64,000 nt of DNA from Sedimentisphaerales bacterium (GTDB lineage Bacteria; Planctomycetota; Phycisphaerae; Sedimentisphaerales; Anaerobacaceae). Where the stretch lies: assembly GCA_963708075.1 (NCBI GenBank), contig OY970194.1, forward strand, positions 4,416,001-4,480,000. The letters are read 5' to 3'. Both the position numbers and the translations under genes were made by a program. Under the pieces are notes generated by a model, which worked only from the letters and a program-made list of their open reading frames with translations, did no database searches and was not told where the DNA came from. This document shows positions 45,272-57,338 of this stretch, piece by piece. Position 1 is the stretch's first letter. Every line of letters starts with the position of its first letter.

Positions 45272-45491
45272 GTATCTTCTCGACGCTGCCAAAGAACGCC
45301 CAACTCACACCCGTCTTCACCCCCAAGACCGCCCCACCCGCCCCAAATGGGCGCAAAATCCCCCGCCCGCCACAAATTATATGCCCGCCCCCACCCCAGC
45401 GCAAGCCAAAACCTACCGCCCTGAGCCCTCCGCACGGCAACCGGACAAGGAATGGTGAGCAGACGAGATCATTTGTGACAAGAAGAGAGTG

Positions 45492-45500
45492 TGTTATAAT
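45492..45500 (+). promoter_or_regulatory. Extended -10 promoter element
   Basis: TGT-TATAAT about 25 nt upstream of ATG 45525. Confidence 0.55.
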
Positions 45501-45524
45501 CATGGACCGGATTGAAGGTGGATC

Positions 45525-45827
45525 ATGTGGAATTTGAACGAAGTGACGAGGATCAGATACAAAAGCGGGTACTGCTATCATATCGTCTTTGACGATGGGG
45601 CCAGCGGGGACGTTGATTTTTCCGAGTACCTTGACAAGGGCCCGGTGTTTGCCCCTCTGCGAGACTTGGACTTCTTCAAGGAGGCACGCATCGAAGGGGG
45701 AACGATCTCCTGGCCCAACGGAGCCGATATTGCTCCGGAGTCCCTCTACGAGAGGGTCGAGAGGACTCGCCAAGCGCCGGAGCCTCCCGCAGCCCGCCCA
45801 AGCCGCCGAGCCAAAGGCAGGGCCTGA
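45525..45827 (+). CDS. DUF2442-domain protein
   Basis: [36 protein letters not shown]. Confidence 0.88.
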
Positions 45828-45929
45828 CCTGAGCGCTTGTCAACGAAGGGGCGTCAAGGAACGCTATGCTCAGTTCCCGGCCGAAATAAGTGAGTCGTCC
45901 AGAATTAAAGATGGTCCGGAGCACGGGTT

Positions 45930-46850
45930 ATGGCTGCTGAAGAAGTGAAGCTACAGACACGTGAACTCGCTGATTTCATTCGGCTCGTAGAAGACTGGAG
46001 GAATCAGTGGAACGTCGGAGAACGCGCGGTCTTCAGAGGGCATGCTGACTCTAATTGGATCCTCATAGCCAAATTGTTCAGAAACCCCGGTGCCAAGCCT
46101 GAGAACAACAAAGGTGATGAGGCAGCCGAGGTTGAGGAGCAACTGCTGGGTGAACATTTGGAGATGATGGAGGCTCATAGTCTGGAGCATAGGCTGTTTC
46201 ATGATTTTTCCCGATATCTCTATGCATATCGGCCTGACTTGGTTTGTACCCTCCCGACGGAAGAGAGAGGCAATACTCGATCGATGCAGGAGTGGAGACA
46301 GTTGGCTATCGCCCAACATTATGGGCTACCGACCCGCTTTCTCGATTTCACCACGAACATGCTCGTCGCATTGTTCTTTGCAGTCGAGGAACCGACGGTA
46401 CGTCGGAGGACGATGAACGGAGAATGGCAAGAGCAAGACAGTGCTGTTTGGTGCATCGAGGTGCAAAATCGCCTGAAGGTCTGGCAGGTCTGGCAGAAAG
46501 ACGGTGTTTGGCTATCGCCTCTGGAGTTTGCAGAGGAAGGCAGCGAGCCGCCAATCGCCAAATTCATAGACACTGCCTACGTCCCAGAGCACATTGACGA
46601 ACGCGTTCGCGCGCAGGGAAGCGTCTTCATGTGTGAACCTCGCGGCAAGAAGGATGGCTGGCAACTTCACACACGCCTTAGGGACAAGACGGAGACCATT
46701 CTGAATCGCAAGGCGGGCGAAAAGAAGGGGACCCGAACCCTCAGGATTCGCATACCCCAGGACGCCCGCGAGTCGTTACGAAATCAACTGGACCTTGTGG
46801 GCGTCAATCGCGCCACCTTGTTTCCAGACCTTGGATCGGCCGCGAAGTAG
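45930..46850 (+). CDS. FRG-domain protein
   Basis: VFRGH, AQHYGLPTRFLDFTTN.LVALFFA, R.RAQGSVF, TLFPDL. Confidence 0.92.
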   Translation: MAAEEVKLQTRELADFIRLVEDWRNQWNVGERAVFRGHADSNWILIAKLFRNPGAKPENNKGDEAAEVEEQLLGEHLEMMEAHSLEHRLFHDFSRYLYAYRPDLVCTLPTEERGNTRSMQEWRQLAIAQHYGLPTRFLDFTTNMLVALFFAVEEPTVRRRTMNGEWQEQDSAVWCIEVQNRLKVWQVWQKDGVWLSPLEFAEEGSEPPIAKFIDTAYVPEHIDERVRAQGSVFMCEPRGKKDGWQLHTRLRDKTETILNRKAGEKKGTRTLRIRIPQDARESLRNQLDLVGVNRATLFPDLGSAAK

Positions 46851-47095
46851 TTGGCATGGGCAGTTCATCAGCGTAAAAGAAGCTACCTCAAGTAGCAAGG
46901 CCATTGACCGCTGGTCAGTTAGTCGCTATGGGTCGCACTTACAAAGTCCACATTCTCTCCCAACACTTCCAATCTTCGGACGGAAGGTTCTCTTTCATCT
47001 GGCAGGGCCCGCTTCGTTCCGAAGTCACAGCCTCATTGTAGAGCCACGCCGACAAAGATACAAAGAGGCCGACGGACAGTACCTCTTTTGTCCCT

Positions 47096-47617
47096 TTACT
47101 TTCCTTCCGATAGGTATCCAATCCTGCCCTTCTGTTGTTGCGGGTCTGGCGGCTCCATCAATGCGCGAATCGCGTCGAAGACGATCTTGAATTGGCTGTC
47201 GTACTTGCGTTCGAGTCGCGCGATTTTTGCGGCCAGATCAGTGTGGGAGGCCAGAAGGTGGCGCAATCGCGAGAAGGCACGCATGATCTCGATATTCACC
47301 TGAATGGCACGTTGACTGCGCAGGACGCTCGACAGCATGGCGACGCCGTGCTCCGTGAAGGCATACGGAGGGTACCGACGGCCGCCCCACTCACTTGAGG
47401 TGCCAAAATGGCATCTCAAGTCTGCGAACTCCTCGCGGGACAGTTGGAACATGAAATCTTCGGGAAATCGTTCGATGTTGCGCTTCATCGCGCGAACGAG
47501 GTTTCCTGTGGCGACCCCGTACAGTTCCGCAAGTTGACTGTCGAGAAGGACTTTCTGGCCTCGGATCAAAAGAATCTGACGTTCAATCCGCTCAACAGGG
47601 ACTAATGCCGCTTTCAT
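47096..47617 (-). CDS. ORF6N-domain DNA-binding protein
   Basis: [46 protein letters not shown]. Confidence 0.92.
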
Positions 47618-47969
47618 TCTCTCTCGGCCTCCAAAACCGCCACACTCAATTGCCGCCAGCAATGATAGGGGGACGCTGACGAAGAATCAAGGAGCAGATT
47701 GCAGAAACCAGAGGGAATTGAAGGTATACGAGGGCCGGGGCCGTATCTTCATGGTTCATCGTTAGGGAAGAGGCGGGCAGGGTTACCAAGAGCGATGGAA
47801 GCTCGCACGAATTGCTCGATCTGCTCCTGCGAAACGCCCAAATCTGTCGCCGTCATCACCAAAACCTTTCCCAAGTTGGCTCCATTCTACCATAGTCGCA
47901 TCTCGTATCCGTATGAAGATCCCTTGTGGCTGCGTGCCTGTGTCTTTGCACGTTTTAGGGCACAGTGCC

Positions 47970-48063
47970 GGGTGGCAGCGGCAAGCGCCAGCTTGCCGAT
48001 GGCTCATGTCTACGCACAGACACCATCGGCAAGCTCCGAAGACTCCGCTTGCCGCTGCCACCC
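47970..48063. repeat. 94-bp GGGTGGCAGCGGCAAGC REP doublet
   Basis: Same arms and length as 37380-37473 and 44454-44547. Confidence 0.9.
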
Positions 48064-48199
48064 ACCACTTGAGTGTAGTCGGACCACTACCGCTGACGCC
48101 CGGTCCGTGGCCCTGCGTCGGATGCCGCTGTGATTCCGTGGAACTTTGCGGGGAGTCGGCGGTATAACGGGGCGGAACAGAGTTCGGGCGGTCGGCGGC

Positions 48200-48742
48200 A
48201 TGATGGACGAACAGGAAGTGATCCAACGCGTTCTCAAGGGCGATACCGAGTCGTTTCGGCTGGTGGTCGAGCGGTACGCCGGGGCGGTGGCGCGGATGAT
48301 CCGGAACGTCGTGGGTGACAGTCACACGTGTGAGGATCTCGCCCAGGAGGTGTTTCTCACGGCGTATGCCAAGCTCGGGACATTCGATCCGGCCCGGAGC
48401 CGGTTCTCCACGTGGCTCTTCACCATTGCCCGGAACAAGGCCGTCAACGCCGCGGCGAGAAAGAAGCCCCGGTATATGGCGGACCCGCCCGAGCGGGCGG
48501 ACGCGAGTGACCCGGAGGTGACCGCGGAAAAGAAGGAACTGCTGGCGGCACTGGATCGGGCCGTGCTGGCTCTGCCGCTGAACCAGCGGACGGCGTTTGT
48601 GCTGGCGGAATTCGAGCTGCTCCCGTACGAGCAGATCGCACAGATTGAAGGCGTCAGGCTCGGAACGATCAAATCGAGAATCAATCGCGCCAGGGTCAAT
48701 TTGACGGAAGTGCTCAGACAATTCGAGGCAGATATCTCATGA
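48200..48742 (+). CDS. ECF RNA polymerase sigma factor
   Basis: EDLAQEVF, FSTWLFTIARN, YEQIA.IEGV.LGTIKSRINRAR. Confidence 0.92.
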   Translation: MMDEQEVIQRVLKGDTESFRLVVERYAGAVARMIRNVVGDSHTCEDLAQEVFLTAYAKLGTFDPARSRFSTWLFTIARNKAVNAAARKKPRYMADPPERADASDPEVTAEKKELLAALDRAVLALPLNQRTAFVLAEFELLPYEQIAQIEGVRLGTIKSRINRARVNLTEVLRQFEADIS

Positions 48743-48984
48743 ATCCACAGGAAGTCTTCGAGGCCTGGAAGGCACGGAAATCGCAGGGTGACGTGAGCCG
48801 GGAGTTTACTGATCGGGTCATGGTCGCCGTCCGCCGTCGAGAAATGACACGAGTCATCGGAGGCATGGCACCGCTGCGGCAGATAGCGGCACGGCCATGG
48901 GCCAGGGCCGCAGCGCTGATCGCGGGAACGCTCCTCGGGCTTGCCCGAATCCTCGCCACCCTTCATCTGATCCTGTTCGCCTAA
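48739..48984 (+). CDS. Small membrane protein, putative anti-sigma factor
   Basis: ATGA overlap with the sigma gene; FTDRVM motif and C-terminal TM. Confidence 0.68.
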   Translation: MNPQEVFEAWKARKSQGDVSREFTDRVMVAVRRREMTRVIGGMAPLRQIAARPWARAAALIAGTLLGLARILATLHLILFA

Positions 48985-48986
48985 CC

Positions 48987-49151
48987 AAGTCCGCAGAAGT
49001 CTTTTGACGTTGTGGTGTCAGAGGACTCTGGCGGACTTGATCAAGAATCACCCCCGGGGGCGGGGGTGCCACATAAGAAACATGTAGCCCAGCCGCCCTC
49101 GGCTGGGTATTCCTGAGCACGTCCGCCTTGTCAAGAAACTTCTGCGGACCT
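48987..49151. repeat. Nested inverted repeats between the anti-sigma gene and lepB
   Basis: aagtccgcagaagtcttttgac ... gtcaagaaacttctgcggacct enclosing gggcgggggtgccaca / tgtagcccagccgccc arms. Confidence 0.65.
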
Positions 49152-49176
49152 GCTTAGTCGAGAAAGGAACACCTTT

Positions 49177-50115
49177 ATGAACGAGAGAACCCACGATATC
49201 GCCGGCAGAAGATCTCCGTGGCTGGCCGGGCTTTTGTCCTTCATCATGCCGGGCATCGGGCAGGTGTACTGTGGAAAGCTTGTGCGCGGGCTGGTCTTCG
49301 GGATCGTCTACGGCCTGGCAATTCCGGCGACACTCGGATTGCTCGCCTACGTCGGTCCGGCTCCCACGGTGCTGTTCGGATTGCTGGCGTTCGTCGCGGC
49401 GCTCGGCGTCGTCGCGGCCGCGGTGATCGATGCCTACCGGCTGGCGGTCAGGACGCGACTCGATTACGAACGGAAGTCTTACAATCGCCCCGCCGTCTAC
49501 CTGCTGATCGGGCTGATGATCCAGGGCAGCGCCATCGGCTACGGCCTGCACGTGCGAGCGAGCCTGTTCGAAGCATTCAGAGTCACTGCCGTTTCCATGT
49601 TTCCCACGATCGGGCTCAACGATCGCATCCTTGGGAACAAGATTGCGTATCGCAAGGCCGATCCGCAGTACGGGGACATCGTCCTGTTCCGCCCGCCGAC
49701 CGGGGATTGGCGCGGCACCTATATCAAGAGAATCGTGGCACTCGGAGGCGACACAGTACAGATCAAGGACAAGGAGGTCTACGTCAACGGTCAGAAGCTG
49801 CCACGGGAGTTGATGGGTCCGGGCACGGTTGCCGCGGACCCTGCCGGCGAGTTAGCCTTCAAAGGCAATATCTACAAAGAGCGGAATGGACGCGCGGAAT
49901 ACACGATATTCCTTACTGATGCCGGCGCTCCTGAGAAAGCGGCGTTCACAGAGATCACAGTGCCCGGGCACCACTGTTTCGTGCTCGGGGATGCCCGTGA
50001 CGATTCCCTCGACAGCCGCCAGTTCGGGCCGATCCCCTATGCCCTCATCAAGGGTCGCGCGGATTACCTCTACTGGCCCGCCAGGGACTGGTCCCGCTTT
50101 GGGCGTCTGCAGTGA
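49177..50115 (+). CDS. lepB: Signal peptidase I with extra N-terminal TM domain
   Basis: SMFPT (Ser), GDIVLF, YIKRIVALGGD (Lys), FVLGD.RDDSLDSRQFG. Confidence 0.88.
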   Translation: MNERTHDIAGRRSPWLAGLLSFIMPGIGQVYCGKLVRGLVFGIVYGLAIPATLGLLAYVGPAPTVLFGLLAFVAALGVVAAAVIDAYRLAVRTRLDYERKSYNRPAVYLLIGLMIQGSAIGYGLHVRASLFEAFRVTAVSMFPTIGLNDRILGNKIAYRKADPQYGDIVLFRPPTGDWRGTYIKRIVALGGDTVQIKDKEVYVNGQKLPRELMGPGTVAADPAGELAFKGNIYKERNGRAEYTIFLTDAGAPEKAAFTEITVPGHHCFVLGDARDDSLDSRQFGPIPYALIKGRADYLYWPARDWSRFGRLQ

Positions 50116-50259
50116 GCCGGCGGCCGGGGCAACAAGACGCACGCGCAAGTGACCTCATTGTGCCCTTGAAACAAGCCTATTCATGAGCCATTATATCGGA
50201 TACTTAAATCCGAGGACTGACCCTTTTTCCTCTCTCCGGACGCTTCGTGTCTTGGGGCA

Positions 50260-53200
50260 TCACTGTGGCGCGCTGAGCTGGTCGAGGAGCAGGTGCAACT
50301 CGGCGGCATCGTCGTAGTCGAGATTCGGGTCGGCGGCCAGGGCCCGGTCACGCGAACCGGAGAGGATGGATTGCAGGGCGGGAAGCAAGGGGCGGGCGTA
50401 GTCCGGCAGACGCGGGTCTTGGGCGAGTTGAGCCAGTTCAGCGGCGGCTTGGGCGGGATGACCTTCCGCAATGGCTTGGGCGACGGCGGCGCAGAGCTGC
50501 ACAGTCGCTCCGCCCACCTGGCTCTCGCCCCCGTCACGGCGGTAGGCGAGGTAGGCGGCGATGGCTTGCTTACGGGCTTGGGCGGCGGCAGGTGCGTTGC
50601 CCACGGCGCGCTCGATGTTGCTGAGGATGGCGAAGGTCTTCCACGGCTCGGCAGCGTGACCAAAGGGCCTCTTGCACTCAACGGCACGCTGGCTTTCGCG
50701 ACGGGCTTCCTCATGACGCCCCAGGGCAAGCAATTGGATCGCGATGTTGTGGTGATCACGTCCTTCGTTGGCCAGATCAGCGATGTCGGGGGTGGCGTGG
50801 ATGTCAGCGGCCTGCCTATAGAAATGAACCGCGTCTTCCCCACGCCCCATTTCAGAGTAGAGGTTCCCAAGTTCACCCAGAGTGCTGGCCTCGTCCACAC
50901 GATCACCGAGCTGAACCTTGATCCGCAGAGCCTCCTGGTAGGCGTGCTCGGCGGCTTGATATTGGCTTGTCCAGTTGTAGACCATGCCGATCTGATGCCA
51001 AGCTCTAGCAACGTTGGCTGGCTCGCCCAGGCCCTCGAATGTCTCTCTCGCCTCGGTGTAGACTGATAGCGCGTCTGCGTAACTCCCTTGGAGCAGGCGG
51101 ACAGTGCCGAGTTGGGCTTTGCCGACAGCAACTTGACGCATATCGTCGAGCCGTTCCGCCAGCCTGATATTCTCCTCGTAGGCGGCAGCAGCCTGATCGA
51201 GTTGGCCAAGGTCGCGGAGGCAGTCGGCGCGTTCGACTAAGCTAACGGACGCCATGCGGGCAGCGTCCTTGTCTCCAGCGTCGGCGAGTCTCTGGAAGCG
51301 CGCTCGGGCCTCGGCCAACGACGCCAGCGCGGATTGCGGATCGCCGCTCGAGCTCAAGGCGCGACCCAAGACAATGTGGCACATCGCTAAGTCATAGGCT
51401 GCCTCATCGTAGGCGGTTTCGCCACTGGCTTGGACGCGAGCGAGCAGGCTACGGGCGACGGGAACGGCTTCGGTAGTTCGACCAGCGTCGAGCAGACGGT
51501 CCACGGCGGCGGACTCGGCCAAGTAGCGGGCGTGGCTCCATTCGCCGAGGCGGGCGGCGGCTTGCTCGCGGAGGGCGGCGGCGCGGGCCAGGGCCTTGGA
51601 GCGGCCCAGCGGTTGCAGGAGGCCTTCGAGGCAGGTGGCTATCTGCACGACGGAATCCCAAGTGATGGTTGATGGTTGATCGTTGATGGTTGATTGAGCG
51701 GCGCGGAAGCGGTGTTCGAGGGCGGCGAGGAGGTTCGGGAGTTCGAGCAGTGTGAGCGTCGCGGCGAGGTGCGGGTCTTTGAACTTCTGCTCGTAGAGGA
51801 AGCCGGTCAGTTGGGACATAGCGGCGGCCCAGGCGGCTTCGGCGGCCTGGCGTTGTGCTCCGCTCAACTCACACTCCAGCGCCGGCCCCAACGCCGGGTC
51901 CAGCCGCAGGTAGCCGTAGGGAAGCAGTTCGGCAAGGCCGACTTGGACGAGGGCGGCGGCGGCCGCTTGAGCAATCGCGGCCTTTTGCTTGTGATCTTCA
52001 ACTCCCGGCGTCAGCAGCGCACCGATAGTGAACAGGTGTCCTCCACCTTGCAGGACCGCCAGCGGCGGGAGGAGTTGGCGCAATTCTTCCGGCAGGCGGC
52101 GCAGGGAGAGTTCGACGCTGGCGAAGAGGGATAGCTCGCGGGCGTTGAGCTTGTCGCCGTGCCTGGCGTGCAGGACCTGCATGATTTGACGGATGGCCTC
52201 GGTGGTCGGCGGCAGGCGGTGTTCGATGAGCTCGCGGGCCACGAGGACCAGGCTGCGTGCGTGGCAGTTCACGGCCTCGACCAGCGCCTCGATCTGCTGC
52301 TCGTTTTCCACGTCGCCGGCGGCACGCGGCATCCGCTCACCCTCGCCGAGCACCTTGCCTACCAACTCAATGGCCTCGGGCCTGCTCAGCCGGTCAATGG
52401 TGAGGTGGTGCCCATCAAACGGCTCCGGCAAGGGCGTGCGCGTGGTGAAGATCAGCCGCGTGCTGCCCACAACCGATAGCCGCTCGCAGAGGGCGAGCAG
52501 GTCGGAAAGGATCTTAGGGTCGAATGCCCCGGCTGCTTGGGCCGCATCCGCCTGCCATCCTACCGGCGGCAGTACGGACTCGCAGTTGTCCATGACGATG
52601 ATCGTCCGATGGTCGCGCAGGGCACGCTCGACGTATTGCTCGGCCTTGGCGGGTTCCTGTCCGGCCTTGCTGAGGAAGTCGGGCACGAGTTGCTCGCCAA
52701 TGGCCCAGAGGACGGCGCGGGCGTCGCCGCATTGTTCCAGGCTCACAAACGCCGCACGGCGGAATCTTTGGCTGGCCACGAGCCAGCGGGCCAGCTCGCA
52801 GCCGAGGACGGTCTTGCCCTCGCCGCCTTCGCCTCGCAAGACCACATAGCGAGGCGCATCGTCACCGCTGCGACAGAGGAGACGCTCGGCCATGAGCAAT
52901 TCGCGGCTGCGGCCTACGAAGCTGTGCTTGGGCGGCTCCGGCAGTTTGCCCAGCGCGAGCCGGCGGGCCTTCTTGATCTCCTCGCGGACGCGCTCTGGCG
53001 GCAATTCGTGGATGAGCTGGGGATCGATCTGTTCCTGGAACAGCACGGGCACAAACCAGTCTTCCATCTTCAGTTCGCCGGTGAAGGCCTTGCCGCGACG
53101 CGTATCGGCCTTGAGCGCCTGCTGGGCGGCGAGCATGGCCTGGCCGACGCGCTCGCCCCCAAGGAGTTTCTGGTAGAAGACGCTGATGAACCGGCGAGCG

Positions 53201-54789
53201 GTCTCGACGAGCACGCTGTGGCTCATGGCCGCGACGGAAGCGACACCACCCTGCAACAGCCGGCCAGCCACGGAAGACGTCGGGTCCTTTTCGGTCTGCG
53301 CGGATTGGCAAGCCTCCAGGAAGAACAGGGGCACATGGTAGTTGCGAACGATGCCTGCGATCTTCTCGGCATTTATGAGTTCGCCTCGGCGGCGTTCGAG
53401 TTTGGCGACGTCGTCCGAGTGCTCAAAGACCAGTGCGCCGAGGCCGTGACGGCCCCCCAGCCCCTCCCGGCCTGCATGGTCGAAGACACCGTGGCCGTCA
53501 AAATGGACGACGTGGTAAGGCTCGCCCGCTACGTACGCACGTTTCAGCTCGGCCTGCAACGTTGGGAACGTGGGTGGGTTGAGGATGGTGAGCCGGGCAA
53601 GCTCGCCTAGTGCGGCAAGAGATTCGACGAGCGGCCGGGCACTGACCCGGTGGTCAATATAGGAAATCCGGAGATCCTTGTCGTCCTGCTCCGGGCGCGG
53701 GCTGACGAGCAGAACGCGCAGCGGGGCCTTGGTGATGATCGGGTCCTTGATTGTCTGGTTCGGCAGGCGTCGGCGTACACAGACACCGGTTGCATCGTGG
53801 AATAGGTAGTCGCTGTCGTCGTGGACCAGCTCCCAGGGCAGCGAAAGGAGCAATGCGGCCGCCTCTTTGGCGTCGTCTTCCTTCGCGGCCTTCACCTTGT
53901 CGTCCAGGGTTGGGTCGGCGAGGAAGTTCTCGTCCACGAGGACGGAGAAGCGGCGCTCGGTGTTGGGACGCGGCTGGTTCCAGGCGGAGAAGGCGTTGCG
54001 TCCGGCGTCGTGCGTGAGAGCGGGCGCGATGGCGGCTTTGTAGAGTTGCTGGCCCCATTGGGGCAGGGCGTCCACGACGGCCTTGGCGCGGTCGGCGAAG
54101 ACACCTTCCGTGGCCGGCCAGCGCGGATAGCCTTCGAGATACCAGGCCAGTTCGCCTGCTTCAATGGCGCCAAGCGGCGCTTCAAAGCGGAACGCCCGGC
54201 TGCGAACGTCCTCCGCGTTCGGTTCCGGCGGATTGTAGATGAGGACCGCCCTGGCTGCGGCGCGGCGTTTGCCGCCGGAGTGGACGACGATAGCCGGCTC
54301 GGACAGTTCGAGGATGAGATCGGCGACAGGTGTGCCGTCCTTGGCCGGCGCGGGCTGCGGATCGTTCGGCAAGGCAAGGCCGAGAGCGGCGAAGATCTCG
54401 GGGAGGGCCTTCTGAATGCGGTCGGGACCTTCCGCGAGCTTGATGCCAACCGGCTCCTCGCCAAACCAGAGCCTCAGCGACGCCGGCTCGACGCCCGGCA
54501 GCAGCAGAGGAACGAGTTTGAAGCCGTCGCTGCGCTTCTGTGCGACCTTCCGGGCATACGCGACTTCTTCCTGGACCCAAGGGGAGTTGGCCGTCTTCGG
54601 GCCAAGGACGACGCTGAAGTGGTCTGCCTGTTCAATGGCCTTCTGAATCCGTACGCGCAGCGGCTCGCCACCAGACAGTTCCCGCGAGTCCGCCCAAACC
54701 GTGACGCCGCGAGCCTCCAGGGCTTCGCGCAGTTCCTTGACCACCGTGTCATCGGCGGTGGCATGCGAGATGAAGAGGGCGTTGCCCAT
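50260..54789 (-). CDS. TIR + CHAT (caspase-like) + STAND NTPase + TPR protein, 1509 aa
   Basis: FISHA..D...SPWVQEE (TIR); HVVHFDGHG and LEACQS (CHAT His/Cys); FVGR.REL, GEGGEGKT, IVMDNCE (STAND); C-terminal TPRs. Confidence 0.92.
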   Translation of the reverse strand: MGNALFISHATADDTVVKELREALEARGVTVWADSRELSGGEPLRVRIQKAIEQADHFSVVLGPKTANSPWVQEEVAYARKVAQKRSDGFKLVPLLLPGVEPASLRLWFGEEPVGIKLAEGPDRIQKALPEIFAALGLALPNDPQPAPAKDGTPVADLILELSEPAIVVHSGGKRRAAARAVLIYNPPEPNAEDVRSRAFRFEAPLGAIEAGELAWYLEGYPRWPATEGVFADRAKAVVDALPQWGQQLYKAAIAPALTHDAGRNAFSAWNQPRPNTERRFSVLVDENFLADPTLDDKVKAAKEDDAKEAAALLLSLPWELVHDDSDYLFHDATGVCVRRRLPNQTIKDPIITKAPLRVLLVSPRPEQDDKDLRISYIDHRVSARPLVESLAALGELARLTILNPPTFPTLQAELKRAYVAGEPYHVVHFDGHGVFDHAGREGLGGRHGLGALVFEHSDDVAKLERRRGELINAEKIAGIVRNYHVPLFFLEACQSAQTEKDPTSSVAGRLLQGGVASVAAMSHSVLVETARRFISVFYQKLLGGERVGQAMLAAQQALKADTRRGKAFTGELKMEDWFVPVLFQEQIDPQLIHELPPERVREEIKKARRLALGKLPEPPKHSFVGRSRELLMAERLLCRSGDDAPRYVVLRGEGGEGKTVLGCELARWLVASQRFRRAAFVSLEQCGDARAVLWAIGEQLVPDFLSKAGQEPAKAEQYVERALRDHRTIIVMDNCESVLPPVGWQADAAQAAGAFDPKILSDLLALCERLSVVGSTRLIFTTRTPLPEPFDGHHLTIDRLSRPEAIELVGKVLGEGERMPRAAGDVENEQQIEALVEAVNCHARSLVLVARELIEHRLPPTTEAIRQIMQVLHARHGDKLNARELSLFASVELSLRRLPEELRQLLPPLAVLQGGGHLFTIGALLTPGVEDHKQKAAIAQAAAAALVQVGLAELLPYGYLRLDPALGPALECELSGAQRQAAEAAWAAAMSQLTGFLYEQKFKDPHLAATLTLLELPNLLAALEHRFRAAQSTINDQPSTITWDSVVQIATCLEGLLQPLGRSKALARAAALREQAAARLGEWSHARYLAESAAVDRLLDAGRTTEAVPVARSLLARVQASGETAYDEAAYDLAMCHIVLGRALSSSGDPQSALASLAEARARFQRLADAGDKDAARMASVSLVERADCLRDLGQLDQAAAAYEENIRLAERLDDMRQVAVGKAQLGTVRLLQGSYADALSVYTEARETFEGLGEPANVARAWHQIGMVYNWTSQYQAAEHAYQEALRIKVQLGDRVDEASTLGELGNLYSEMGRGEDAVHFYRQAADIHATPDIADLANEGRDHHNIAIQLLALGRHEEARRESQRAVECKRPFGHAAEPWKTFAILSNIERAVGNAPAAAQARKQAIAAYLAYRRDGGESQVGGATVQLCAAVAQAIAEGHPAQAAAELAQLAQDPRLPDYARPLLPALQSILSGSRDRALAADPNLDYDDAAELHLLLDQLSAPQ

Positions 54790-54950
54790 GCTTGACCTCC
54801 GTCACTCATCCGGAATGCCTGGGCGGTTCTCCCCGTCCGTCAACTGCCATGGCGGACATGAGCCCCAACCGTGCCGGCGGCGCATCCCAAAGATGGAGTC
54901 CCGTTTAACCTCGAAATTGGCCCGCGGCCGGATAACTGCGCACCTCAGAC

Positions 54951-54979
54951 ATCTTACAGCGAGGCTCTCGCAATGTCAA
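54951..54979 (-). promoter_or_regulatory. Sigma70-type promoter of the TIR-CHAT-STAND gene
   Basis: TTGACA-17bp-TAAGAT on the minus strand. Confidence 0.6.
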
Positions 54980-55183
54980 CGCAGCAAACGTCTTTGAAGG
55001 ATTGAAGGTGTCACTCATCCGGGGCGAAGGGCCCATGGATCGGCGTAACTCCATGTGCAGCAAGAGCTTGCCTTCATAGAAGCGGACTGGCCCTGTGGGT
55101 CATGGGCAGGATGCCCATGCTACGACGAAGCAACCTCTCACACGCCCCCCCCAAGGCAGTTGGGGGCCGGGGTGCAGCGAGAG

Positions 55184-55657
55184 CTACTGCTCCTGCGTGC
55201 AACCACTTGTACCGCAAGGACTTACGGGCTGACTGGACGAGTTCATGAACGGACAGCCGGTGGTCTGGGGCTTCGCCATGGTGCAGCCAGCAGCCGGGGC
55301 TTCGCCGGTCTTTGGGCAGCAGGGCATTGGGCAGCCTTCGGTGCCGGTGCAGGGAGTGGCGGCTGCCGCCATGCCGGTGCATGGGGTGGCGGTTGCCGCT
55401 ATGCCGGGCCATGGGGTTGTGGCAGCCGCGGTGCCGCCACTTGGGGCTGCGTGGACTTGAGGATCGGCGGAGGCAGCGGTCATCCTGGGGCACGCATCGG
55501 TGTTCATTAACGGGCAGCCGTCGCAGTTGGCCTCTACTGCCACTTGCGGGGCCTGGGTCGGTCTATCGATATAGCCGGCCAGCAGGCCGGTGCCGGCGGC
55601 CAAAGCCGCGATGACTAAGACGGCGGGAATCAGGCGCTTTGATAAGATCGCTTTCAT
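55184..55657 (-). CDS. Small secreted Cys-rich low-complexity protein
   Basis: RBS GGAG; signal/TM; CDGCP, TPCTG repeats, GCPMPCCP, GCPF. Confidence 0.68.
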   Translation of the reverse strand: MKAILSKRLIPAVLVIAALAAGTGLLAGYIDRPTQAPQVAVEANCDGCPLMNTDACPRMTAASADPQVHAAPSGGTAAATTPWPGIAATATPCTGMAAAATPCTGTEGCPMPCCPKTGEAPAAGCTMAKPQTTGCPFMNSSSQPVSPCGTSGCTQEQ

Positions 55658-55794
55658 CAGTACTCTCCAACCCTTAAACCATGAGTTTCAGTCGGTTCCG
55701 ATAACCACTACGAGTCTTTCGGCCTGACGCAGCATACTGCCGAGACAGGCGTCCGGTTCATTATCGCATAGAATGCGGCCTAACTCAAAATCTT

Positions 55795-55823
55795 TTGACG
55801 GTCGCTCGACGTACAACTATAGT
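55795..55823 (+). promoter_or_regulatory. Sigma70-type promoter of guaBA
   Basis: TTGACG-17bp-TATAGT. Confidence 0.65.
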
Positions 55824-55865
55824 AACGGGTTTACAGTAGGAACGGAAGCGCTGTTGGAGCCGTCT

Positions 55866-57338
55866 ATGAACATTGAGAAGATCATCGCCAAAGGTATCAC
55901 GTTTGACGACGTGCTGTTAATCCCCGGGAAAAGCAGCTTTGTGCCGAACCAGGCGGATACGAGCACGAAGCTCACCCGCAACATCGGGATCAATATCCCC
56001 ATCGTCTCGGCCGCCATGGACACGGTCACCGAATCGGCCCTGGCCATCGCACTGGCGCAGGAGGGCGGGGTCGGCATAATCCACAAAAACCTCAGTATCG
56101 AGGCCCAGAAGCGGGAGGTGGCCAAGGTCAAGCGGTCGGAGAACGGGGTGATCCTCGACCCCGTGACGCTCTCGCCCAGAGAACCGGTGCGACGGGCACA
56201 GGAGCTGATGGCCGAGCAGAACGTGTCCGGTATCCCCATCGTCGAGGGCAAAAAGCTCGTCGGTATCCTGACCCGCCGGGATCTTAAGTTCCTGCGAGAT
56301 TACAGCGTGATGATCGACACGGTCATGACGAAGAAGAACCTCGTGACCGGCCCGGCGGACACCACCCTCGAACAGGCCAAGGAAATACTCTCAACCCATA
56401 AGGTCGAGAAGCTTCTGCTGGTCAACGGGAACGGCGAACTGGCCGGGCTGATCACGATGCGCGACATCGACCGCGTCCAGCAGTACCCGACGGCGGCCAG
56501 GGATAAGCGTGGCCGGCTGCGGGTCGGGGCGGCCGTCAGCGTTCACGAGTACGAGCGGGTCGAAGCCCTGATCGCTGCGGATGTCGATATCATCACTGTC
56601 GATACTGCGCACGGGCACTCGCAAAACGTCATCGACACCGTTAAGAAGATCAAGAAAACCTACAAGATCGACGTGATCGCGGGCAATATCGCCACGGCCG
56701 AGGCGGCCAGGGACCTGATCGACGCCGGCGCCGACGCCGTCAAAGTCGGAATCGGACCCGGGGCCATCTGCACGACCCGCATCATCTCCGGCGTCGGCGT
56801 GCCCCAGATCTCCGCGATCATGGACTGTGCCGAGGTCGCCAACGCCGAGGGCGTGCCGGTCATTGCCGACGGAGGTATCCGCCAGTCCGGCGACATCACC
56901 AAGGCCATCGCCGCGGGTGCATCGAGCGTCATGATCGGCTCGCTGTTCGCCGGCCTCAAAGAAAGCCCCGGCCAACTGGTCATCTACAAGGGCCGGCAGT
57001 TCAAGGAGTATCGCGGCATGGGCTCGCTCGGCGCGATGGTCAAAGGCTCCGCCGAACGCTACGGCCAGAGCAGCAAAACCGACGTCGGCAAACTCGTCCC
57101 CGAGGGCGTCGAAGGACGCGTCCCCTATCGCGGCACACTCAGCGACTTCGTCTATCAGCTCGTCGGCGGCCTGCGGGCCGGTATGGGCTACTGTGGCACC
57201 CGCAACATCGACGAGCTGATGGCCAAGACCCGCTTCGTCCGCGTCACCGCCGCCAGCGTCAGCGAAAGCCATCCCCACGATATCCAAATCACCAAGGAGG
57301 CCCCGAACTATTCCGCGAGCCTGCCCTTCGAAGACTGA
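55866..57338 (+). CDS. guaB: IMP dehydrogenase
   Basis: [19 protein letters not shown] pair, [25 protein letters not shown]. Confidence 0.97.

Follow-up and report, generated by a model that had tools for sequence, protein, structure and literature searches.

A single-chain protein joining TIR and CHAT effector domains to an NB-ARC-type switch and a TPR sensor in a Sedimentisphaerales bacterium

The gene and its reading frame

The stretch of DNA analysed here (the window) comprises 64,000 nucleotides of a Sedimentisphaerales bacterium (GCA_963708075.1, contig OY970194.1, positions 4,416,001 to 4,480,000 of the forward strand). Its gene of interest lies at 50260..54789 on the minus strand and encodes a TIR-CHAT-NB-ARC-TPR protein (TPR, tetratricopeptide repeat). 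The gene is a single open reading frame (ORF) with an ATG start, 1509 amino acids plus stop. It contains no internal stops, the open frame of 1513 aa reaches only 4 codons 5' of the ATG, and its GC content at third codon positions (GC3) is 0.77, a typical coding value and like that of the adjoining genes. An earlier reading of the letters and reading frames (the original prediction) had described a single-chain TIR-CHAT-STAND-TPR protein; one intact ORF, the order of the Pfam domains and the full-length homologues confirm this.

From the N-terminus, the chain is made up of a TIR domain (residues 1-140; 54370..54789), a Pro-rich linker (141-152; 54334..54369), a two-lobed CHAT protease module (153-595; 53005..54333), an NB-ARC-type NTPase module consisting of nucleotide-binding domain, helical domain 1 and winged-helix domain (NBD-HD1-WHD; residues about 620-979; 51853..52932) and a helical/TPR sensor with a conserved C-terminal tail (980-1509; 50263..51852), all on the minus strand.

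On the same strand, a sigma-70-like promoter match (TTGACA-17-TAAGAT, 10/12) is found at 54951..54979, about 160 bp upstream of the ATG. Five sigma-70-like sites were observed in 50000-55900, compared with 0.7 expected from shuffles. The promoter of its own that had been ascribed to the gene is thus a match to the consensus only. A search at the 3' end of the gene showed no terminator-like site. The gap of 983 bp between the start of the gene and guaB holds three tandem copies of a 30-nt unit (55342-55431), in which the later copies are 87% and 70% identical to the first, and no ORF of the gap is matched by a Pfam model. Two DNA metagenome runs contain part of the stretch (shares 0.43 and 0.05); among the sequencing runs listed as containing it there is no RNA run.

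Domains and catalytic centres

The NLR-like architecture that had been claimed is supported by hidden Markov models (HMMs), by structural matches and by two confident AlphaFold2 models. The models were built on family alignments and cover residues 1-630 (predicted local distance difference test, pLDDT, 87.5; predicted template modelling score, pTM, 0.86) and 600-1509 (pLDDT 90.9, pTM 0.83). A sequence search of the PDB at E <= 0.01 returned TPR and TIR chains only, and no STAND or CHAT chain. Conservation was read from a MAFFT alignment of 180 family proteins of at least 1250 aa, query included. In this set, the mean identity to the query is 0.46 for the TIR, 0.46 and 0.60 for the pseudo-caspase and active lobes of the protease, 0.52 for the NBD and 0.52 for the TPR region. 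The TPR region is as well conserved as the enzymatic domains, and the sensor is therefore not hypervariable.

The Pfam model TIR_2 matches residues 6-102 (9.4e-22; 78.2 bits, cut-off 28). The modelled domain aligns with the TIR-APAZ protein of SPARTA (8ifl_A; Z 19.0, root mean square deviation (rmsd) 2.2 A, 135 residues aligned, 26% identity) and also resembles AbTir (7uxu_A, Z 17.1) and SARM1 (9mw2_A, Z 17.0). The motif SPWVQEE, in which a catalytic-type glutamate had been noticed, is present at residues 69-75. The conserved glutamate in this W71-x3-E75 arrangement is the second one, E75, which is retained in 157 of the 158 homologues that carry a TIR; the adjacent E74 is variable. From alignment to known NADase TIRs, we take E75 to be the likely catalytic residue. 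Of the PADLOC profiles, those for the pAgo-associated TIR (2.8e-14) and the SAVED-TIR (3.6e-13) match better than that for ThsB (2.2e-6). The TIR is closer to the NADase-effector TIRs (pAgo-associated, SAVED-TIR, SPARTA) than to the ThsB signal generators, and for this reason NAD+ depletion is favoured over signalling. The linker behind it (residues 141-152) is the least conserved segment of the protein. Its mean identity to the query is 0.27, compared with 0.46-0.60 for the domains, no column reaches 90%, and it holds no conserved motif.

For the protease, the Pfam CHAT model covers residues 313-564 (1.9e-22; 80.5 bits, cut-off 24). Both catalytic motifs named in the original prediction, HFDGHG (429-434) and EACQS (492-496), are found, and with them an intact His/Cys dyad of H433 and C494. 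In the model, residues 152-594 align as one unit with the protease modules of Csx29 (8d9f_A, residues 397-716; Z 20.1, rmsd 3.7 A, 300 aligned) and human separase (9hn5_A, residues 1704-2120; Z 19.2, 315 aligned). Since the whole region superposes on both modules in this way, residues 153-312 are assigned as a predicted pseudo-caspase lobe and residues 313-595 as the predicted active lobe with H433 and C494. An extra ligand-binding domain in residues 103-312, which have no Pfam assignment, was considered and rejected, as the region is accounted for by the pseudo-caspase lobe. Across the alignment, H433 is conserved in 172/180 and C494 in 171/180 sequences, and the dyad is intact in 168/180; H429 is found in all 180. 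A complex prediction for TIR (1-140) and CHAT (153-600), each with its alignment, gave a score of 0.01 (mark 0.32) in a run made without controls. A Pfam Gasdermin search of the genome gave no match, and the control gave none either.

The P-loop GEGGEGKT (Walker A, residues 653-660) and the Walker B sequence IVMDN (731-735) are likewise both present, and the Walker A lysine (K659) and the Walker B aspartate (D734) are conserved in 180/180 sequences each. The Pfam NB-ARC model matches residues 644-735 with 23.7 bits at a cut-off of 23.5. The weak P-loop/STAND signal over residues 624-800 is also seen by AAA_16 (27.5, cut-off 32.6) and NACHT (19.6, cut-off 26.7), both below threshold. NB-ARC scores are higher in other family members (48.1 bits in P0149, 30.9 bits in P0155). 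In the structural ranking, the modelled NTPase module is closest to Apaf-1 (3sfz; Z 18.6, 423 aligned, protein residues 606-1123), the NB-ARC domain of tomato NRC1 (8bv0_A; Z 18.4, 316 aligned) and NRC2 (8rfh_A; Z 17.8), with MalT and an archaeal STAND-TPR protein ranked below them. The module also contains, as read from the sequence, a TTR motif within RLIFTTRTP; this motif is typical of NB-ARC proteins. The models thus point to a STAND module that is specifically an NB-ARC of the Apaf-1/plant-NLR kind, with an NBD-HD1-WHD fold followed by a repeat sensor. The long TPR region reported for the C-terminal part is borne out by Pfam and by structure: TPR_12 reaches 83.8 bits in 4 stretches, other TPR models match over about residues 1070-1440, and the modelled C-terminal third forms an LGN-like TPR superhelix (5a6c_B; Z 21.9, 324 aligned), after which comes the conserved tail.

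Size and distribution of the family

A word-indexed search, in which 8000 candidates were scored, gave 1804 proteins at E <= 0.001. The best 120 of these 1804 are almost all 1390-1580 aa long, 49-77% identical and collinear, and five of them were noted as having no TIR Pfam match. Residues 1-630 were also searched exhaustively with HMMER against 1.84 billion cluster representatives. This yielded 16431 matches at E <= 0.001, of which 2767 reach E <= 1e-10 and 522 reach E <= 1e-30. Hosts include Verrucomicrobia, Acidobacteria (Solibacter, Sulfopaludibacter, Pyrinomonadaceae, Thermoanaerobaculia, Bryobacterales), KSB1, a Halomicronema cyanobacterium, a Bacillota metagenome-assembled genome (MAG), Candidatus Electrothrix, and gamma- and betaproteobacteria. 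The family is thus large, uncharacterised and spread over many phyla. No description of it was found in searches of open-access literature, and it may be among the 589 STAND clades of PMC13581612.

Within the genus, a full-length homologue was found in one of 23 other genomes (G007; 53% identity, at another locus), and none was found in 17 more distant relatives. Another congener carries no more than a CHAT-STAND relative of 29% identity. In an even sample of the phylum, with two candidates scored per genome, a member at E <= 1e-100 was detected in 2 of 300 other genomes. The distribution is accessory and horizontally spread.

The host genome contains a second copy outside the window (G000:C1:6596722-6601057, plus strand; L002 675-5166) that is 52-54% identical to the gene described here. 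It is read in two frames, which meet at one extra base in the pseudo-caspase lobe near residue 233, as judged by comparison with the intact G007 homologue (73.5% nucleotide identity). The TIR glutamate, the CHAT dyad and the Walker motifs are all present across the two pieces. A natural split into two genes was rejected for this copy, given that the frames meet at a single base that is extra relative to the intact homologue; the extra base reflects a genuine frameshift or else an error in the assembly. Homologues at four loci from MAG or single-cell assemblies (L010, L013, L017, L018) are broken into two to four frames. These breaks are probably assembly errors and not biology, and the same caution applies to the second copy.

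The island and its neighbourhood

The gene is part of a variable insertion of about 10.5 kb (45300..55780) between an extracytoplasmic function (ECF) sigma gene and guaB. The same two genes are separated by only about 0.74-0.8 kb in the congeners G004 and G008. DNA homology with relatives ends near 45300 and restarts near 55784, and the corresponding site of the congener G007 is occupied by unrelated cargo of about 8 kb. On these grounds, we place the gene in an insertion within a variable hotspot. The G007 cargo (L024, G007:C176, 5644-13715) consists of a four-CBS-domain gene and a gene for a 1371-aa protein, in which an N-terminal ECF sigma factor is fused to seven CarboxypepD_reg repeats. 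The edges of the island show no tRNA, Rfam element or convincing att-like direct or flanking repeat, and no integrase domain was found among the island ORFs scanned.

In order, the neighbourhood reads PEPCK, two ORFs without Pfam match together with the ECF sigma gene, a DUF2442 gene (45525-45827, plus strand), an FRG-domain gene (45930..46850, plus strand; Pfam FRG 1.6e-21, PADLOC phage-defence candidate PDC-S15 1.1e-42) and an ORF6N-domain gene (47096..47662, minus strand; Pfam ORF6N 4.9e-35, PADLOC phage-defence candidate PDC-S05 7e-55). These are followed by a second ECF sigma gene (48146-48742, plus strand), the stop of which overlaps the start of an 81-aa ORF without Pfam match (48739-48984, plus strand; possibly an anti-sigma factor), by a gene with an S26 signal-peptidase domain and a 117-aa N-terminal extension (49177-50115, plus strand), by the TIR-CHAT-NB-ARC-TPR gene itself, and by guaB and guaA.

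Elsewhere in the window, the segment 24900-31400 has a lower GC content (0.52-0.59, compared with about 0.61 elsewhere), and none of its ORFs (391, 335, 318, 168, 144, 126 and 153 aa) is matched by a Pfam model at E <= 1e-5; possibly this segment is a further inserted island. The remainder of the window contains polysaccharide-degradation and housekeeping genes. Over the whole host genome there are 11 TIR_2 loci and 3 CHAT loci. One conflict-type locus outside the window (L035, G000:C1:2598000-2617500) encodes a TIR protein (522 aa), a MoxR-type AAA+ protein (343 aa), a 323-aa ORF without assignment and a 1310-aa TIR-NACHT-TPR protein, with a 433-aa CHAT protein about 4 kb further on. This locus is similar to the MoxR-associated systems that Kaur et al. 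described in 2020.

Surroundings of the homologues

Fourteen homologue loci were taken from species-representative genomes, of which the 11 with near-full-length genes were used; three with only a C-terminal match (L011, L014, L016) were dropped. Within 6 kb of these genes, 121 flanking ORFs were called and 81 were scanned, the 40 left out being mostly short ones from the frameshift-rich loci L013, L017 and L018. By Pfam, the flanks contain transporters, metabolic enzymes, a ribosomal S7/EF-G/EF-Tu operon and two-component genes, with a scatter of mobile or toxin items (YhaV toxin, an AbiEii fragment, an IS66 transposase).

No conserved partner gene was found by Pfam at the 11 loci or by tblastx among nine upstream and seven downstream regions. 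As the flanks of the homologues are not conserved, we consider the gene to stand alone. The statement of the original prediction that no dedicated substrate gene adjoins it also holds, in the gene's own neighbourhood and in the homologue flanks. The CHAT proteins Csx29 and DdvA are tied to sigma and anti-sigma factors. The ECF sigma gene, the 81-aa ORF and the S26 peptidase gene next to our gene were considered as partners and dropped, since the flanks of the 11 homologue loci contain no Sigma70 domain.

At one locus, from a Thermoanaerobaculia MAG (L015, 14894-19070), the rpsG-fusA-tuf operon follows directly downstream of the homologue. The type IV Thoeris protease is known to target EF-Tu. 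The position beside tuf is a single case and probably a coincidence.

Coupling of the effectors and proposed mechanism

The states of the TIR and of the CHAT dyad were cross-tabulated over the same 180 sequences. E75 and the dyad are both intact in 147 sequences. Ten have a TIR with E75 and have lost the dyad, 20 have no TIR and keep the dyad, two have no TIR and a dyad that is lost or gapped, and in one a TIR without E75 is combined with an intact dyad. TIR-less forms have 3-75 residues ahead of the pseudo-caspase lobe, although some of these entries may be truncated gene calls. Individual proteins depart from the common layout in other ways: P0248 has no TIR and instead a C-terminal PNP_UDP_1 nucleoside phosphorylase, P0197 is an AAA_35-TIR-CHAT protein, and P0069 has two TIR stretches. 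Members thus exist in which one effector, be it the TIR or the protease, is gone and the other one remains together with the switch. This disfavours an obligatory order of the two enzymes, whichever comes first, and favours parallel outputs. For the tandem effectors, the original prediction had offered protease-gated NADase activity or dual killing. The family data fit dual killing in parallel better and speak against gating by the protease.

We consider it about an even chance that the protein is a self-contained NLR-like sensor which fires an NADase-type TIR and a CHAT protease in parallel, and an immune role appears the likelier case. Judging from Apaf-1, plant NLRs and the Avs proteins of bacteria, the C-terminal helical/TPR array would keep the NB-ARC switched off with ADP bound. 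Binding of a conserved ligand, which most probably is a protein from an invading phage or another mobile element, would allow nucleotide exchange and oligomerisation. The oligomer would gather the N-terminal enzymes of several chains and switch on both of them in parallel. The TIRs could then build composite active sites and destroy NAD+, and the Csx29/separase-type CHAT protease could cut cellular (or invader) proteins, so that the infected cell would arrest its growth or die.

If the two enzymes were to act in series, the TIR might come first, as in a fused analogue of type IV Thoeris in which a cyclic ADP-ribose (cADPR) isomer made by the TIR switches on the CHAT executioner. Activation of a caspase-like protease by N7-cADPR is established in the two-gene type IV Thoeris system (10.1101/2024.10.24.620036). 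In addition, TIR and CHAT recur with other modules, in P0197 and in a Thiohalocapsa protein that is a target of a diversity-generating retroelement (DGR; PMC10907252), which suggests a functional pair. However, the 20 of 180 members that keep the dyad without a TIR indicate a protease that is independent of a TIR in cis, residues 152-594 form one unit and leave no separate ligand-binding domain between TIR and CHAT, and the TIR is nearer to NADase effectors than to ThsB. We regard this order of events as quite unlikely. The reverse order, in which the CHAT protease cleaves its own chain in the linker, frees or unmasks the TIR and so leads to NAD+ depletion, appears less likely still. The flexible Pro-rich linker does separate the TIR from the protease, and Csx29 and separase, both with CHAT-type proteases, act via single specific cuts. 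But ten of the 158 TIR-bearing members keep E75 without the His/Cys dyad, and a linker with so little identity and no column at 90% offers no conserved cleavage motif.

The main rival to an antiviral function is a cell-death or signalling switch that is linked to stress or development and senses an endogenous ligand. We hold it to be doubtful, but a more serious candidate than either series. It agrees with a sensor that is not hypervariable, with the mostly housekeeping flanks of the homologues and with hosts among which are soil and sediment bacteria with large genomes, a filamentous cyanobacterium and a cable bacterium, as well as with a host genome that has 11 TIR_2 and 3 CHAT loci, the MoxR-associated TIR-NACHT-TPR locus among them. 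Such roles have been suggested for NLR-like proteins in bacteria that lead complex lifestyles, and systems of this kind are discussed in PMC7159879 and PMC8195603. On the other hand, the patchy distribution in genus and phylum and an island with two defence candidates fit a conflict gene better, and the sensors of Avs proteins recognise conserved folds, too (PMC13581612). That the gene is a decaying or inactive relic without present function is hardly credible, even though the second copy in the same genome has a one-base frame break: the gene itself is intact over 1509 codons, has every catalytic residue and the GC3 of a coding sequence, and its full-length relatives of 49-77% identity are found in many phyla.

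Several observations weigh against a parallel-acting immune receptor. The NB-ARC score of this copy is only marginally above the Pfam cut-off. The ten cases of a lost dyad rest on the MAFFT alignment, and some of them may be misaligned. The TPR sensor is conserved like the enzymes (0.52), as would be expected equally of a sensor for an endogenous ligand and of one for a conserved phage protein. On plasmids and viral contigs, only distant CHAT relatives of about 28-31% identity were detected, and no member of the family proper. PADLOC at E <= 1e-8 matches only 6 of the 81 flanking ORFs, and by Pfam these six are ABC-transporter ATPases and a permease, a RecQ (RQC, HRDC) and a Ser/Thr kinase; no clear defence island is thus visible around the homologues (11 loci, no matched control). 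For an enrichment in defence neighbourhoods, the lack of which the original prediction had named as a refutation, the picture is mixed: the gene's own island has its PDC-S15 and PDC-S05 matches, but the 11 homologue flanks are mostly housekeeping. Finally, searched against PADLOC-DB 2.0 at E <= 0.1, a 2023 library without the newer Avs families, the protein is matched by models at the level of TIR or TPR only and by no Avs, bNACHT or complete-system model. The comparison with Avs made in the original prediction is reasonable in the sense that the protein may work like an Avs, but its being an Avs is unsupported.

Relation to known systems

The closest likeness is to the apoptosome of Apaf-1/CED-4 and to the resistosomes of plant TIR-NLRs and NRCs. 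The protein has in common with them the NBD-HD1-WHD(-HD2) order, Walker A and B and the TTR motif, and, as in Apaf-1 and plant NLRs, a C-terminal repeat sensor is combined with an N-terminal death effector. It merges on one chain the plant logic of a TIR on an NB-ARC with the animal logic of a caspase-type protease on an NB-ARC. Unlike in Apaf-1, the protease is fused and not recruited by a CARD, and it is of the two-lobed CHAT/separase type and not a caspase proper. The sensor is of TPR type, where Apaf-1 and plant NLRs have WD40 or LRR repeats, and both effectors reside on the same polypeptide.

With Avs (AVAST) and other NLR-like STAND proteins, the protein shares the single-gene layout of effector, STAND and TPR-like sensor and the accessory, horizontally spread occurrence. 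It differs from Avs in having two tandem enzymatic effectors and not one. Csx29 (TPR-CHAT, Craspase), SAVED-CHAT and separase have the same fold of pseudo-caspase and caspase lobes with a His/Cys dyad. These proteases are activated by a CRISPR effector, by cyclic oligoadenylate and by loss of securin, respectively, and cut one dedicated substrate, whereas the protein described here has a fused NB-ARC switch as predicted activator and no adjoining substrate gene.

The closest relatives of the TIR by HMM and structure are SPARTA (short pAgo with TIR-APAZ) and TIR-SAVED, NADase effectors that are activated by oligomerisation. Their sensors are an Argonaute with guide RNA and the cyclic-nucleotide-binding SAVED domain, in place of the NB-ARC-TPR part found here. 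Type IV Thoeris also pairs a TIR enzyme with a caspase-type protease (10.1101/2024.10.24.620036), but it consists of two genes that communicate by diffusible N7-cADPR and has no STAND or TPR module; in our family, both enzymes are on one chain and the TIR is dispensable in 20/180 members.

In the literature, bacterial NLR-like proteins are known to begin with a TIR or with a CHAT domain (10.1101/2020.01.06.895854), and both domains are listed as effectors of NTP-dependent conflict systems (PMC7159879, PMC8195603). TIRs in Avs and in standalone proteins were deliberately excluded from a survey of TIR signalling systems (10.64898/2025.12.03.692087). The DGR-diversified target of Thiohalocapsa is a single protein that carries both domains.

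Significance

NADase-type TIRs and caspase-type proteases are death enzymes that plants and animals use separately. To our knowledge, the bacterial NLR-like proteins studied so far have one effector each. The family described here puts both death enzymes on one Apaf-1-like switch, and its natural variants without one or the other activity provide a genetic series for distinguishing redundant, additive and coupled arms. As a compact single-gene system, it also lends itself to the question of how NB-ARC oligomerisation switches on enzymes. The answers would inform the question of how TIR-NLR and apoptosome signalling arose in bacteria.

A more speculative view, which we think has an outside chance of being correct, is that TIR and CHAT make up a recurrent, mechanistically coupled two-enzyme effector cassette that is plugged onto different sensors: NB-ARC-TPR in this family, AAA_35 in P0197 and DGR-diversified lectin domains elsewhere. 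The TIR product or the NAD+ level might, for example, tune the protease, or the protease might license assembly of the TIRs. If this were true, the family would be a single-chain, ancestor-like form that unites the logic of plant TIR-NLRs with that of apoptosome and caspase.

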